Shown here: positions 5,509 through 42,968 of the stretch, piece after piece
Layout: every line of letters starts with the position of its first letter
Numbering within the stretch: the first letter of the stretch is position 1
Assembly (NCBI GenBank): GCA_019187405.1
Contig: JABAQZ010000027.1
Coordinates: 39,610-103,609 of the forward strand
Direction: 5' to 3'
DNA from: Ignavibacteria bacterium
GTDB lineage: Bacteria; Bacteroidota; Ignavibacteria; Tepidaquicellales; Tepidaquicellaceae
DNA length: 64,000 bases
Translations under genes and position numbers: made by a program
The notes under the pieces: model-generated
Databases searched by the model: none
Told to the model about the DNA's origin: nothing
What the model saw: the letters and a program-made list of their open reading frames with translations, nothing else

Positions 5509-7317
5509 TTAGTTTCCTGCCTTTGTCGAGTCATTCAAATTTTCTTTCCTTTTGATTCTAATTGACCTGACAACAGATTCTATTTCTTTTTTATATTGAT
5601 CAAAAAACTGCTTCCTTACCGAAGCGCCAATGGATAATTTCTCAGTGCCGAGTTTATTAAATACATAAAATTTATATTCGGTAAAACCCGCGATTGTCTT
5701 CGGTTCTTTTGAAAATACCGTTATCGTAGAGTCAAATACCGGAAATTCTGTTTTAAAATCTTCGGGATTATAATCTTTATTCTCCAGGTCAAGATAAATA
5801 AACATTGTCATTGTTCCCGGCTGCTCTGCCGTAGTATCAGTCAGCAATATTCCTTTAAACTCTGTTTCATTTTTATTTATCTCTCTCTGATCCGTAAGCT
5901 TCCAGTTTTTCGGAAAATACAAAGCAAGACCAATGTCATTTTCATTAAAATCATTTCTGAGAGAATCGGGAATCTGATAAGTCATAGCAAGCGAATCAAT
6001 TTTTGTCGAATCAAGTCCAAGCGTGTCAATGTTATCAACGAGTTTTCTAAGTGAATCAAGTTCTCTCTCCAGCTCAGTCTGACTTGAAGTGTCTTTTGGA
6101 GTATTGAAATCTTCTCTATGAGGTCTCTTCACTTCGGGCGGCTTTACCGTTCTCTTCGGATTCAAATCCCTGACGATAGCTTCCTTTTTTTCCGATTCAC
6201 TTTCAGGCATTGGAATTTCCGGAGGTTTATTTGGATCTTCGACATTCTGTATGTTAATCTTGGGATCAGGAAGATCCTGAATTACAATGAGTCTCGGCAG
6301 TTCTTCCGGTTTCTGAATTTTTGATTTCTTAGAAACATTAAAGTAAACTAAGCCTGCAACAGCAGAATGAATAGCTACTGCGGCAACAATTCCAATAGTA
6401 ATATTTTTTCTGATTAGTTTTCTTAATGCATCAAAAGGATTCTTGTAACCTCCGCTTAAATCAGTATAATCATCATCGCCTGCTGCAACTGGATATGAAG
6501 GCGGCTGTATCAAATCCACTACGTCGGGATTTGGTATCAGTTTTAATTCTCCTTCTTTTGAAATGACGTCAGCATTTACAGCTTCAATCTCTATTACGAT
6601 TTCAGCAGACTGAACTTCATTTCCCGCTTTTGGATGAATGTAAATTTTATTTGTCTGAGAATCTTTGAGTGAAAATTTTTCTTTCGAAAAAGAATCTATC
6701 CTGATTCCCCTGTCTGTTTCTATTTTAATGCTGAGCAGATTTTCATTGATCAGATTAATCTGAAAATTGCTTTTTTTCTGAGTGTCTGTTTTTAATTCTT
6801 CCTGCTTAATCTCTTTGGTATCTCCGGATTTAACAGCTGATTCATCTTCGATGGAAATAAAAACGCTGATTTCCTGCTCGTTAAAATTAAATTTAGGATA
6901 TAAAAAAATCTCGTTGCTTTGTGATTCTACGGAAGTATTTATATCTTTGACCGATGAAATTATTTTTACACCCTGCTTTGTGTTTATCGTAACCTTAAGC
7001 TGATTTTCATCGACCAGACTGATCTGATAATTGCTTGGTTTAATTTTTTGCTGAGAGGAAGTTAATGAAGTTTTTTTGTCATCAATTGATTCTTTATCAT
7101 CAGATATTTCTTTGTTATCAGTTGATTCTTTATCATCAGATAATTCGTTTTCAGCAAATGATTCTTTTTTATCATTTTCTGTTCCAGAATTTTCATGCTG
7201 TATTTCCGGATTACCAAGCGGTTTGTTTCCGGAAGAATCATGCTTTTCAGGCTTGTTTTCGAAATTTTGGTTATCGGATAGAGATTTTTCTTCCGGATTT
7301 ATGTTGTTTTCTGACAT
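5509..7317 (-). CDS. Acidic, repeat-containing single-pass membrane protein of unknown function
   Basis: 602-aa ORF. Acidic N-terminus, two ~95-aa internal repeats (SNYQISLVDENQLKVTINTKQG.. / SNFQINLINENLLSIKIETDRG..), one TM (ITIGIVAAVAIHSAVAGLVYF), a Pro/Lys-rich linker and a C-terminal globular part. Confidence 0.6.
   Translation of the reverse strand: MSENNINPEEKSLSDNQNFENKPEKHDSSGNKPLGNPEIQHENSGTENDKKESFAENELSDDKESTDNKEISDDKESIDDKKTSLTSSQQKIKPSNYQISLVDENQLKVTINTKQGVKIISSVKDINTSVESQSNEIFLYPKFNFNEQEISVFISIEDESAVKSGDTKEIKQEELKTDTQKKSNFQINLINENLLSIKIETDRGIRIDSFSKEKFSLKDSQTNKIYIHPKAGNEVQSAEIVIEIEAVNADVISKEGELKLIPNPDVVDLIQPPSYPVAAGDDDYTDLSGGYKNPFDALRKLIRKNITIGIVAAVAIHSAVAGLVYFNVSKKSKIQKPEELPRLIVIQDLPDPKINIQNVEDPNKPPEIPMPESESEKKEAIVRDLNPKRTVKPPEVKRPHREDFNTPKDTSSQTELERELDSLRKLVDNIDTLGLDSTKIDSLAMTYQIPDSLRNDFNENDIGLALYFPKNWKLTDQREINKNETEFKGILLTDTTAEQPGTMTMFIYLDLENKDYNPEDFKTEFPVFDSTITVFSKEPKTIAGFTEYKFYVFNKLGTEKLSIGASVRKQFFDQYKKEIESVVRSIRIKRKENLNDSTKAGN
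7082..7142. repeat. 36-bp-period tandem duplication inside the 602-aa ORF
   Basis: TCAATTGATTCTTTATCATCAGATA (7082-7106) and TCAGTTGATTCTTTATCATCAGATA (7118-7142). They encode ..SDDKESTDNKEISDDKESIDDKK.. on the minus strand. Confidence 0.8.
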
Positions 7318-40836: not shown

Positions 40837-41346
40837 ATGCTTCAATCATTTAATTTCAAAAAATGGATAGAAGAAAACCGACATCTTCTCAAACCACCGG
40901 TAGGTAATAAATGCATGGTGGACGGAGATCTCATAGTAATGGTTGTCGGCGGACCGAATTCAAGAAAAGATTATCACTACGAAGACGGCGCTGAATTCTT
41001 TTATCAGGTAGAAGGAGATATAACGGTAAAAATCATTGAAGACGGAAAACCCCGCGATATTCATATCAAAGAGGGCGAGATGTTTTATCTTCCGCCGAAT
41101 ATTCCCCACTCGCCGCAAAGACCAGCAAATACTGTTGGTCTTGTTATAGAAAGAAAACGTGATGAAAAAGAACTTGACGGCTTTCAATGGTATTGCGAAA
41201 ACTGCGGTGAAAAACTCTATGAGGAATTTGTTAAGCTGACAAATATCGTTACGCAACTTCCTCCGATTTTTGAAAAATACTGGAGCGATGTTTCCAAACG
41301 AACTTGCAAAAAATGCGGAACGGTTATGGCTCCGCCAAAGAAGTAG
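40837..41346 (+). CDS. nbaC: 3-hydroxyanthranilate 3,4-dioxygenase
   Basis: Near-collinear with bacterial HAO: ..WIEENRHLLKPPVGNK..VVGGPNSRKDYH...EFFYQVEGD...EGEMFYLPPNIPHSPQRP...GLVIERKR...DGFQWYCENCG...CKKCG. Confidence 0.9.
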   Translation: MLQSFNFKKWIEENRHLLKPPVGNKCMVDGDLIVMVVGGPNSRKDYHYEDGAEFFYQVEGDITVKIIEDGKPRDIHIKEGEMFYLPPNIPHSPQRPANTVGLVIERKRDEKELDGFQWYCENCGEKLYEEFVKLTNIVTQLPPIFEKYWSDVSKRTCKKCGTVMAPPKK

Positions 41347-41354
41347 TTTCAATT

Positions 41355-41475
41355 AAGAAATTACGAATTGCAAATTACAAATGAAGAATTATGAATTGCG
41401 ATTTGCAAATTATGAATGACGAATTACGATTAACAAATGACAAATTTCTCCGTCGTGACGGATTACAAATAGTTT
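41355..41475. repeat. Left array of degenerate ATTAC(G/A)AAT-type short repeats flanking the four-helix-bundle gene
   Basis: AAATTACGAATTGCAAATTACAAATGAAGAATTATGAATTGCGATTTGCAAATTATGAATGACGAATTACGATTAACAAATGACAAAT...GATTACAAAT. Confidence 0.65.
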
Positions 41476-41521
41476 AATTATTTAGTATTTTTGTTTGAAA
41501 ATTAATTTTAAGGAGGATTTT

Positions 41522-41875
41522 ATGTACGAGGAAAGTATTATTCATGTAAAAAGTTATTCGTTTTCGATTAGAATTGTAAAACTATATCAGTATTTGATAA
41601 AAGAATATAATGAATATTCTTTGGCTAAACTGATTTTAAGATCTGGTACTTCTATAGGTGCAAACATTGAAGAAGCTACAGAGGGATATTCAAAAAAAGA
41701 ATTTCTGTCAAAACTTTCCATTTCTTACCGTGAAGTTCGCGAAACACTTAATTGACTGAGAATTTTGTTTGATACCCATTACATAAACAAAAGAGTTTTT
41801 GAATCATTGTTAATTGACTGTGAAGAAATTCTTAGAATTTATCAAAGATACAAGAAACAACAAAAATGTCATTAA
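41522..41875 (+). pseudogene. Four-helix-bundle protein ('23S rRNA intervening-sequence protein' family) interrupted by an in-frame TGA
   Basis: ATG at 41522 preceded by AAGGAGG. ..LAKLILRSGTSIGANIEEATEGYSKKEFLSKLSISYREVRETLN-TGA(41753-41755)-LRILFDTHYINKRVFESLLIDCEEILRI.. The family motif as I recall it (e.g. ..KEANETEYWLELL..) has Trp where the TGA lies. Total length is 117 codons, typical for the family. Confidence 0.8.
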
Positions 41876-41948
41876 TTAATCTTCGTTAAATTATTTGTAA
41901 TCTGTAATTTGTAATCTGTAATTATTTACAAAATTCGAAATTTGTAAC
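41876..41948. repeat. Right array of the same short repeats in inverted orientation
   Basis: ..TTATTTGTAATCTGTAATTTGTAATCTGTAATTATTTACAAAATTCGAAATTTGTAAC.. carries ATTTGTAAT units, the reverse complement of the ATTACAAAT units in the left array. Confidence 0.65.
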
Positions 41949-41954
41949 TTGAAA

Positions 41955-42968
41955 ATGAAAATAGACCTTCACACACACATACTTCCCGAAAACTGGCCTG
42001 ACCTGAAAGAGAAATATGGTTATGGAGGGTTTGTTAAGCTTGATCATTACAAGCCATGCTGCGCTAAGATGATGATTGACGGTAAATTTTTCAGGGAGAT
42101 TCAGAGCAATTGCTGGGATCCCGTTAAACGAATTTCCGAATGTAACAGCTCAGGCGTGAATGTACAGGTGCTGTCAACTGTTCCGGTAATGTTCAGCTAC
42201 TGGGCTAAGTCGCATGATACACTTGACTTGTCTAAATATCTCAATGATCATATTGCAGGCGTTGTAAAAGATTATCCGGATAGATTTATTGGGCTTGGTA
42301 CACTGCCAATGCAGTCGCCGGATCTTGCCGTTAATGAACTTGCAAGATGTGTAAACGATCTCGGACTTGCGGGCATTGAAATTGGTTCGCATGTTAATGA
42401 TTGGAATCTGAATGACGAAAATCTTTTTCCTGTTTATGAAGCTGCCGAAGATCTTGGGGCAGCAATATTCGTTCATCCATGGGACATGATGGGTAAGGAA
42501 AAAATGCCGAAGTACTGGCTTCCATGGCTTGTCGGAATGCCTGCTGAAACTTCACTTGCAATTTGCTCGATGATTTTTGGAGGTGTGTTTAAAAGATTTA
42601 AAAAACTCAAAGTGTGTTTTGCACATGGGGGCGGTTCATTTCCTTTTACAATTGGAAGAATTGAGCATGGATTTAATGTCAGGCCGGATCTGGTTGCAGT
42701 CGATAATAACGAGAATCCGAGAGATTATCTCGGAAAATTTTTCCTTGATTCACTTGTTCACGATAAGCATGCATTGAAATTTATTATCGATTTGATCGGA
42801 GAAGATAAAGTCATTCTCGGATCAGATTATCCGTTTCCGCTTGGTGAGCATGTTCCCGGAAAGCTCATTGAATCATCCGATTTCCTAACAGATATCATCA
42901 AAGAAAAATTATTATGGAAAAATTCATTGGAGTTTTTGGGTAAAGAAAAATTTGCCACTATGATTTAG
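41955..42968 (+). CDS. nbaD: 2-amino-3-carboxymuconate-6-semialdehyde decarboxylase (ACMSD, amidohydrolase fold)
   Basis: MKIDLHTHILPENWPDL.., ..VHPWDMMG...YWLPWLVGMPAETSLAI...CFAHGGGSFPFTIGRIEHG...GSDYPFPLGEH. ATG at 41955 is preferred over the track's TTG at 41949. Confidence 0.9.
   Translation: MKIDLHTHILPENWPDLKEKYGYGGFVKLDHYKPCCAKMMIDGKFFREIQSNCWDPVKRISECNSSGVNVQVLSTVPVMFSYWAKSHDTLDLSKYLNDHIAGVVKDYPDRFIGLGTLPMQSPDLAVNELARCVNDLGLAGIEIGSHVNDWNLNDENLFPVYEAAEDLGAAIFVHPWDMMGKEKMPKYWLPWLVGMPAETSLAICSMIFGGVFKRFKKLKVCFAHGGGSFPFTIGRIEHGFNVRPDLVAVDNNENPRDYLGKFFLDSLVHDKHALKFIIDLIGEDKVILGSDYPFPLGEHVPGKLIESSDFLTDIIKEKLLWKNSLEFLGKEKFATMI

Follow-up and report, generated by a model that had tools for sequence, protein, structure and literature searches.

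Within a 64,000-nucleotide stretch of an Ignavibacteria bacterium genome (GenBank assembly GCA_019187405.1, contig JABAQZ010000027.1, positions 39,610 to 103,609; hereafter the window), nbaC and a downstream ACMSD-type amidohydrolase gene are kept apart by a 608-bp insert (window positions 41347-41954), in which a gene of the four-helix-bundle family PF05635/TIGR02436 is enclosed by inverted arrays of short tandem repeats. We read this region as a relic copy of a promoter-less gene cassette, and this explanation as a whole, spanning the relic, its anatomy, its history, and a mechanism of release by RNase III, is the one that we consider probable, with considerable room left for the alternatives weighed below. 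Comparison with relatives shows that the cassette is an insert set exactly between the nbaC stop and ACMSD start codons, that this junction has been filled, emptied, and re-filled in Ignavibacteria by several cassette lineages, and that, where a copy is intact, purifying selection acts on its protein. The window copy is a decaying member of an old cassette set resident at the site.

Gain, loss, and replacement at the nbaC-ACMSD junction

Two sets of relatives were compared at the junction, one of 23 nbaC loci and one of 80 more obtained by scanning species-representative genomes for nbaC, the nearest of these being Ignavibacteria metagenome bins; genomes may overlap between the sets (e.g., locus L159 is a contig of genome G020). 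Among the first 23 relatives, nbaC and ACMSD overlap (TAATG or ATGA) in five, are separated by a spacer of 20-68 nt in three, and in seven are parted at the identical spot by a four-helix-bundle cassette with AATTACG-type arms, while further junctions contain either leftover arms lacking the gene or some other small gene. The wider set added 23 filled and five overlapping junctions, all in Ignavibacteria, and none of its Hymenobacter or proteobacterial operons had a cassette-filled or overlapping junction. Overall, the cassette occupies the identical spot in ~30 relatives. An earlier reading made from the window letters only (hereafter the sequence-only reading) had described a ~600-bp insert here with the look of an insertion cassette; both descriptions stand, given the same-spot cassettes and the empty junctions, and relatives with an uninterrupted operon have overlapping genes instead of the same spacer.

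Filled and empty states are interleaved on the tree of the two host genes, where G029 (filled) is sister to G026 (empty), and the filled junctions contain at least three divergent cassette lineages (types A/A2, B, and C), whose proteins share 53-69% identity from one type to another, as against 85-96% for nbaC. The major cassette type changes at least eight times on the nbaC tree and eight times on the ACMSD tree. Replacement is seen directly in two sister pairs, L170 (type B2) with L171 (type A) and L199 (type C) with L202 (type A), in which both flanks share 84-98% DNA identity; the drop in identity falls precisely on the nbaC stop codon, and the recovery precisely on the ACMSD start. In several type-C copies, nbaC has its stop in the first upstream repeat unit, and ACMSD takes its TTG start from the last downstream unit (AAATTG). 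Any target duplication comprises at most the AAT of TAATG, which is indistinguishable from the AT-rich arm ends.

Separately, the flanks themselves differ in their relatedness to the window: nbaC is 71% and ACMSD 79-81% identical in L201 and L202, and nbaC is 86% and ACMSD 70-71% identical in L176 and L190, histories so discordant that they point to recombination breakpoints at or near the cassette. In some Ignavibacteria this junction also has other passenger genes, one for a short-chain dehydrogenase and one, of 151 aa, that is GyrI-like / Cass2 ('integron-associated effector binding'); they are found alone, together, or beside a cassette or arm remnants (L035-L037, L040, L044, L039, L046, and L180), and the junction behaves like a hot spot for small gene insertions. 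In L162 (3008-3230), a gene-less, arms-only hairpin of AGTTACG/AATTACG units followed by their complement lies upstream of a loaded cassette, as if an unfilled cassette preceded a filled one in tandem. In L197 (3008-3400), a full cassette is preceded by a tandem duplication that takes in its left arm, its leader, and ~35 codons from the start of the gene. In L050 (genome G032), ten copies of a 9-mer (AGTTCATAA) directly follow the nbaC stop without a four-helix-bundle gene; genome G032 has a cassette with AATTACG arms at another site, flanked by a radC-like gene and queF (L133).

Layout of the insert

The insert and its neighbors, all on the plus strand, are laid out as follows (window positions; evidence in parentheses).

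40837..41346, plus strand: nbaC, 3-hydroxyanthranilate 3,4-dioxygenase (TIGR03037, E=1.8e-74; PF06052, E=1.1e-63)
41347..41417, plus strand: upstream heptamer array, outer part (ortholog DNA alignment; L159/L161 sequences; Tandem Repeats Finder [TRF], period 7)
41418..41477, plus strand: upstream arm, inner (ancestral) part (ortholog alignment; inverted pair of 41458-41477 with 41886-41905, 90%)
41510..41516, plus strand: Shine-Dalgarno sequence AAGGAGG of the cassette gene (sequence; ortholog alignment, where it is kept)
41522..41752, plus strand: four-helix-bundle gene, codons 1-77 (PF05635 / TIGR02436; PDB 2RLD, E=9e-25)
41753..41755, plus strand: in-frame TGA, codon 78 (TGG, Trp, in 6/6 orthologs)
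41756..41837, plus strand: continuation of the gene in the original frame, codons 79 to ~105 (translation; ortholog alignment)
41838..41840, plus strand: T-run with 1-nt deletion, TTT versus TTTT in six orthologs, -1 frameshift (alignment)
41839..41889, plus strand: ancestral C-terminal frame LSKIQETTKMSLINLR, now out of frame, with stop TAA at 41887-41889 (match to ortholog proteins)
41890..41929, plus strand: downstream arm, inner part, ATTTGTA / ATCTGTA units (reverse complement of the upstream units)
41930..41954, plus strand: downstream arm, outer part, ...TTCGAAATTTGTAACTTGAAA, ending at the ACMSD start (sequence; inverted pair)
41955..42968, plus strand: ACMSD-type amidohydrolase, Amidohydro_2 (PF04909, E=4.9e-43; start aligned with relatives)

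The nbaC stop TAG (41344-41346) directly abuts the insert, and the cassette gene has, as had been noted before, its own AAGGAGG and ATG (41522), which lie 5 nt apart. The ACMSD ATG at 41955 has no Shine-Dalgarno sequence of its own. A promoter consensus scan of the cassette gave background levels only, a result that is uninformative for promoters other than those of sigma-70, and a terminator scan found none inside the insert.

A four-helix-bundle gene with two lesions

The open reading frame (ORF) at 41522-41877 comprises 117 codons with a single in-frame TGA at codon 78, and yields 117 residues when that TGA is read as Trp. Profile searches upheld its assignment to the four-helix-bundle family, with matches well above the cut-offs for both PF05635 (E=6.6e-25; 87.8 bits against a cut-off of 33.8; profile positions 3-103 of 106) and TIGR02436 (E=8.4e-27; 93.6 bits against 24; positions 4-108 of 109). 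Of the family motif GxxRxxxSxxxNxxE (PMC3936711), the part R-x3-S-x3-N-x2-E is present as LRSGTSIGANIEE at residues 39-51 of the translation, and the nearest solved structure, linked by sequence, is 2RLD (E=9e-25; an entry with five chains).

Six orthologs, 77-84% identical to the window gene, sit at the same junction (L163, L171, L173, L192, L201, and L202), and their DNA alignment locates two differences. All six have TGG where the window has TGA (41753-41755), and all six have TTTT where the window has TTT (41838-41840), which shifts the frame of the last ~16 codons; the frame read from 41839, LSKIQETTKMSLINLR, agrees with the ortholog C-termini of LSRIQITTKASLNNKLK type. The TGA at codon 78 and the 1-nt deletion leave no intact ORF of ~115-125 codons, and by these alignments the window gene is a pseudogene with two lesions, one nonsense and one frameshift. 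The sequence-only reading had proposed a single TGG-to-TGA nonsense mutation at a conserved Trp; the mutation is supported by the six orthologs, but it is accompanied by the frameshift, and the column is less strictly conserved than that reading held, with W in only 67/136 copies of the order, followed in frequency by Q and M.

A relative's copy (L142) has a TGA at the identical Trp column, and this recurrence could suggest that TGA is decoded (as Trp, as selenocysteine, or by read-through) and the full-length protein made. We consider such decoding extremely improbable. TGA closes 12/38 long ORFs in the window and is therefore an ordinary stop here, in agreement with the sequence-only reading; the frameshift lies 28 codons further downstream; and the other broken copies in relatives have TAA or TAG in place of E, K, Y, and L codons, in each case by one-step mutations. 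Further, TGG to TGA is the only single-step change that turns Trp into a stop, which makes its recurrence at Trp columns expected. Recoding of the TGA as selenocysteine or Trp was rejected on two of these grounds, the use of TGA to end long ORFs and the downstream frameshift.

Whether the organism itself carries the lesions is a separate matter. The frameshift falls within a homopolymer, which is a typical site of long-read errors, and the genome is a 38-contig assembly, so that the T-run deletion especially could in principle be an assembly error. That the organism has an intact gene, with either lesion or both introduced in sequencing or assembly, is nonetheless very unlikely in our view, given that other long ORFs in the window are unbroken (up to 2090 aa), that a substitution error yielding exactly a stop is unlikely, and that there are independent signs of decay in the long branch of the window copy, an 11-nt insertion in its stem, and the lowest arm complementarity of 24 cassettes, as described next.

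Repeat arms and stem of the window copy

The upstream array (41347-41477) is built of degenerate 7-nt units (AATTACG, AATTGCA, AATTACA, AATGAAG, AATTATG, ...) and the downstream array (41890-41954) of complementary units (ATTTGTA, ATCTGTA, ATTTGTA, ATCTGTA, ...). The inverted arrays seen by the sequence-only reading are real, but its unit ATTACnAAT gives way to a heptamer. A 16-nt repeat pattern has nine matches in the window against 1.26 expected, 7/9 of them inside the two arrays, and the only period-7 arrays that TRF reports in the whole 64 kb are at 41358-41446 and 41896-41922. As had been suggested, the gene can be enclosed by a long stem formed between the two arrays: inverted pairs spanning the gene include one of 23 nt (87% complementary) and one of 20 nt (90%), and both the minimum free energy (MFE) and centroid folds of 41344-41960 join the upstream with the downstream array (z=-3.26 versus shuffles).

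Relative to the six type-A orthologs, these arms are altered. The outer upstream part (41347-41417) is unique to the window copy, which has gained ~75 nt of degenerate units there, and its downstream arm is longer by ~25-30 nt; the ancestral stem is broken by an 11-nt insertion at ~41449-41459 (TCCGTCGTGAC), which forms a small GC hairpin. Arm complementarity, at 15.5, is the lowest of the 24 cassettes at the junction, and the window upstream arm pairs better with the downstream arms of other genomes than with its own. The copy sits on a long branch, although its own lineage is long-branched in ACMSD too and dS (synonymous divergence) is saturated, which makes the dN/dS ratio no guide to relaxed selection in this copy. 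The outer arm ends, TAGTTTCAA... and ...GTAACTTGAAA, resemble those of type-B cassettes (L159/L161) from the genomes with the most similar nbaC, a likeness that hints at a composite history of the window copy. Elsewhere in the window, a tandem repeat of 18/36-nt units (TTTATCATCAGATGATTC) with 73-82% matches lies at 7071-7174 and overlaps a long minus-strand ORF (5509-7317).

The same build at other sites and in other genomes

The same build recurs in the same genome and in relatives, but the unit sequence differs each time. The genome holds three family members, each with a different repeat unit. The only intact one (L001:1193-1981, contig C8) lies exactly between cysD and cysN, with ~190 nt of GTTAACT/GTTTACT units upstream, an array that is self-complementary (AACAGTT, then AACTGTT), and ~135 nt of TTAACTA/CTAACTA units downstream. 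The other (L003:1429-1962, contig C5) has two TAA stops, follows ahcY, directly precedes a tRNA gene, and retains only short, vestigial heptamer arrays as arms. An Rfam scan of the three loci found no Gut-1 or other motif and no rRNA match; its hits were the tRNA beside L003 and chance miRNA-like matches on the self-complementary L001 array.

Beyond this genome, family matches occur in 36/40 relatives of the same order (~175 in all). We collected 140 gene instances with flanks and based statistics on the 133 with full 250-nt flanks, scoring the arms by local alignment of the upstream flank with the reverse complement of its own downstream flank. The median own-arm score was 20, as compared with 9 across loci (95th percentile 14), and 79% of the 133 exceeded that percentile, while the direct-repeat score of the same flanks stayed at the background level (9). 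Tandem arrays were present in 55% of upstream and 52% of downstream flanks versus 2% of control windows, with a period of 7 (most), 8, or 9 that was identical in both arms in 44/47 cases, and each cassette carried its own unit sequence. Broken genes accounted for 23/133 copies, and very long arrays are kept around some of them.

The build also extends to finished isolate replicons, which argues that it is not an artefact of binning. On Nostoc punctiforme plasmid pNPUN01, GGAGGTC/GGAAGTC units face GACCTCC/GACTTCC units in 44-nt arms that are 86% complementary, and on a Bernardetia plasmid 15 copies of GATTAGT face their complement around the gene. The pNPUN01 cassette ties this build to the heptamer repeats of cyanobacteria. 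That cassette (L240; pNPUN01 162142-163644) adjoins a gene for an XisH-family excision factor on what is a conjugative plasmid.

Arms and gene as one unit, and selection on the protein

At the junction, arms complement their own partners best (23.7), same-type partners somewhat less (20.3), and partners across types least (13.0). The six intact type-A orthologs share a 23-pair consensus helix with two compensatory pairs, which is modest evidence, as it comes from six sequences with the arms joined by an artificial linker; in G007, arms of AATTAGA/AATTAGG facing TCTAATT/CCTAATT represent a compensated change relative to AATTACG/CGTAATT. When 134 copies are placed on a family tree, their units sort by protein clade in both length and sequence: one clade has 9-mers (GAGTGTGTA-type units), others have 8-mers, and half of the tree has AT-rich 7-mers. 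Where two copies share no flanking gene, their periods agree in a fraction of 0.48 of the pairs with <30% protein identity and in 0.9-1.0 of those above 50%, and arm sequence similarity likewise rises with protein identity, although kin are not independent in these comparisons. Such likeness across different sites indicates that the arms travel with the gene and do not arise from the target.

The intact type-A orthologs have ratios of nonsynonymous to synonymous divergence (dN/dS) of 0.02-0.15 (with dS saturated), and AAGGAGG before the ATG is kept in all of them, which together argue that the protein is made and selected.

These same patterns could also be read as recognition, with the arrays serving as binding sites of the four-helix-bundle protein, an Avd-like and probably pentameric nucleic-acid binder, such that each protein lineage would be specific for a unit of its own, 7, 8, or 9 nt long, and would use it either to regulate itself or to assemble a nucleoprotein complex for transfer. 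Avd, the accessory protein of diversity-generating retroelements, is usually placed in the same four-helix-bundle superfamily, is a small basic helical protein, and serves a reverse transcriptase acting on structured RNA, and this precedent, the purifying selection on the protein, and the tracking of protein clades by unit length and sequence even between genomic sites all speak for binding. However, shared descent of whole cassettes explains the link between clade and period without any protein-repeat recognition, and long, well-matched arrays persist at broken genes (e.g., L088.1, whose gene contains one stop and whose arrays score 103 and 92). We therefore regard binding as quite unlikely to be what the arrays are for. 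As for membership in a retroelement, neither a reverse transcriptase nor a template or variable repeat was found next to the window gene, and the sole RVT_1 match in the genome is on contig C33, the window being on C13; Avd genes are not known to be enclosed by inverted heptamer arrays.

Relation to known systems

The closest known relatives of the cassette are the ORF-bearing intervening sequences (IVS) of 23S rRNA genes in Coxiella burnetii, Leptospira, Xanthomonas, and Brucella (S23p / PF05635 ORF). Like the cassette, they carry the same family in the loop between stem-closing ends, have tandem heptamers of varying copy number before the ORF, often show a decaying ORF, and are absent from close relatives. 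The best-studied case is that of Coxiella burnetii, whose IVS has a 28-bp terminal stem, a decaying ORF of this protein family, and three to four tandem GACAGAT heptamers before the ORF, in strain-variable number, and is excised by RNase III, as shown in vitro (PMC4990558). The window cassette shares the stem-closing complementary ends (inverted pairs, fold, and ortholog helix) and the sporadic presence, with empty overlapping junctions even in sisters of filled genomes. It differs in location, lying between two protein genes of a catabolic operon and not inside a 23S rRNA gene, where IVS occupy helix 25 or 45. Further, its arms are whole inverted tandem arrays, which reach ~190 nt in this class of cassette; its strong Shine-Dalgarno sequence would survive stem cleavage, whereas the putative one of the Coxiella IVS is removed; and several cassette lineages alternate at one junction.

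Heptanucleotide repeats are also known in dispersed form, as GGGAATC in Xanthomonas, short tandemly repeated repetitive (STRR) sequences in Nostoc/Calothrix, and four-heptamer elements in Geobacter (PMC4692102, PMC2700814). These elements resemble the cassette arms in being intergenic, in having ~4 or more 7-nt units, and in sometimes being inverted (PMC4692102, PMC2700814), but the papers that describe them make no link to PF05635, whereas the arrays of the window and of pNPUN01 bracket such a gene. Genes annotated 23S_rRNA_IVP have been noted inside cas loci as well (PMC3936711).

Other small elements invite comparison. MITEs (miniature transposable elements with inverted repeats), repetitive extragenic palindromic (REP)-type elements, and integron cassettes are likewise small, non-autonomous, bounded by inverted repeats, and placed between genes, and an integron cassette resembles the window cassette further in that its promoter-less cargo is expressed from a host transcript. 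In contrast to all of these, the copies described here have no shared terminal sequence, each lineage having its own unit, and they have no clear target-site duplication and no attC-like site; no association with a transposase, a REP-associated tyrosine transposase (RAYT), or an integrase was seen. Nor are there the many near-identical copies of a MITE, as the three copies in the genome differ in unit and the window has no other arrays. Our literature searches found no paper on an intergenic cassette of this kind as a class, and the one paper among those found that connects heptamers with the family is that on the Coxiella IVS.

A proposed mechanism and the case against it

By analogy with the ORF-bearing IVS of 23S rRNA, we infer processing by RNase III, the gene for which is present in the genome. 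The cassette would be transcribed as a passenger of the host operon, its stem would form in the RNA, and RNase III would cut the stem, releasing a stem-capped monocistronic mRNA with an intact ribosome-binding site and leaving both host cistrons in usable form. Since the ribosome-binding site is set 33 nt inward from the stem's inner end, cleavage would leave a translatable, stem-capped message. Because such release would keep both the mRNA and the host cistrons usable, it could account for why inserts of this kind are tolerated in operons and in rRNA. ACMSD lacks a ribosome-binding site of its own at empty and filled junctions alike. In empty junctions it is coupled to nbaC by TAATG; in filled operons, we speculate that its translation may depend on the fate of the stem.

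Several points weigh against this explanation. Neither a recombinase, nor a clear target duplication, nor an excision junction was found, and the replacement of one cassette by another at the junction could be plain homologous recombination through conserved flanks. Most of the genomes compared are metagenome bins. In L001, the upstream array pairs with itself, not with the downstream array, in the MFE structure, and over all copies the arms at broken genes are only slightly weaker (median 16 versus 20.5, one-sided p=0.048, which is not robust, kin not being independent), so that dependence of the arms on an intact gene in cis shows as no more than a weak trend. Finally, mismatches in the arms show no excess of the G-U type over the A-C type (174 versus 144, p=0.10; per-locus sign test, p=0.66), so nothing in them says that pairing is selected on sense RNA rather than on DNA.

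This last point also opens the alternative that the arms act on DNA, as hairpins or cruciforms extruded in single-stranded DNA that would be the substrate for movement or exchange, either by template switching at replication or through a putative hairpin-recognizing recombinase, with complementarity kept by hairpin-templated repair and not by selection for a stem in RNA. Consistent with such a role are the lack of G-U bias over A-C, the exchange of cassettes exactly at arm boundaries, the arms-only remnants and the arms-only hairpin standing in tandem before a loaded cassette (L046, L036, and L162), and the expansion and contraction of arrays (e.g., the ~75 nt extra upstream in the window copy). 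We nevertheless hold it to be unlikely: the cassette travels without a recombinase; unit sequences differ between cassettes, which makes a single sequence-specific enzyme unlikely; and the homologous arrangement in rRNA is a demonstrated RNA processing site (PMC4990558). The RNA-stem and DNA-arm readings are not mutually exclusive.

A broader proposal is conceivable, though we regard it as doubtful, namely that gene and inverted short-repeat arms form an autonomous relocating module that homes to operon stop/start junctions and rRNA helices and is swapped lineage for lineage, brought about by its Avd-like protein, which would work on the stem-loop of its cassette, as RNA or as DNA, perhaps together with a polymerase or reverse transcriptase of the host.

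Implications

PF05635/TIGR02436 is a very large family for which we know of no function outside diversity-generating retroelements, and where rRNA intervening sequences and bacterial heptamer arrays come from has been a question for ~30 years. The nbaC-ACMSD junction offers a tractable natural experiment, being empty, occupied by one of at least three lineages, or left with arm remnants or a decaying copy among close relatives, and this locus shows that arms and gene move together, that the protein is selected, and that the insert is bounded by the stop and start codons of its neighbors. A practical matter for annotation is that the nbaC-ACMSD operon is split here by a 600-bp structured insert and that the downstream ACMSD gene lacks its own ribosome-binding site, so that the pathway may depend for its expression on how the insert RNA is handled. 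Should the relocating module proposed above prove true, it would be a new class of mobile element and would account for the 23S rRNA intervening sequences and the heptanucleotide arrays of many bacteria.

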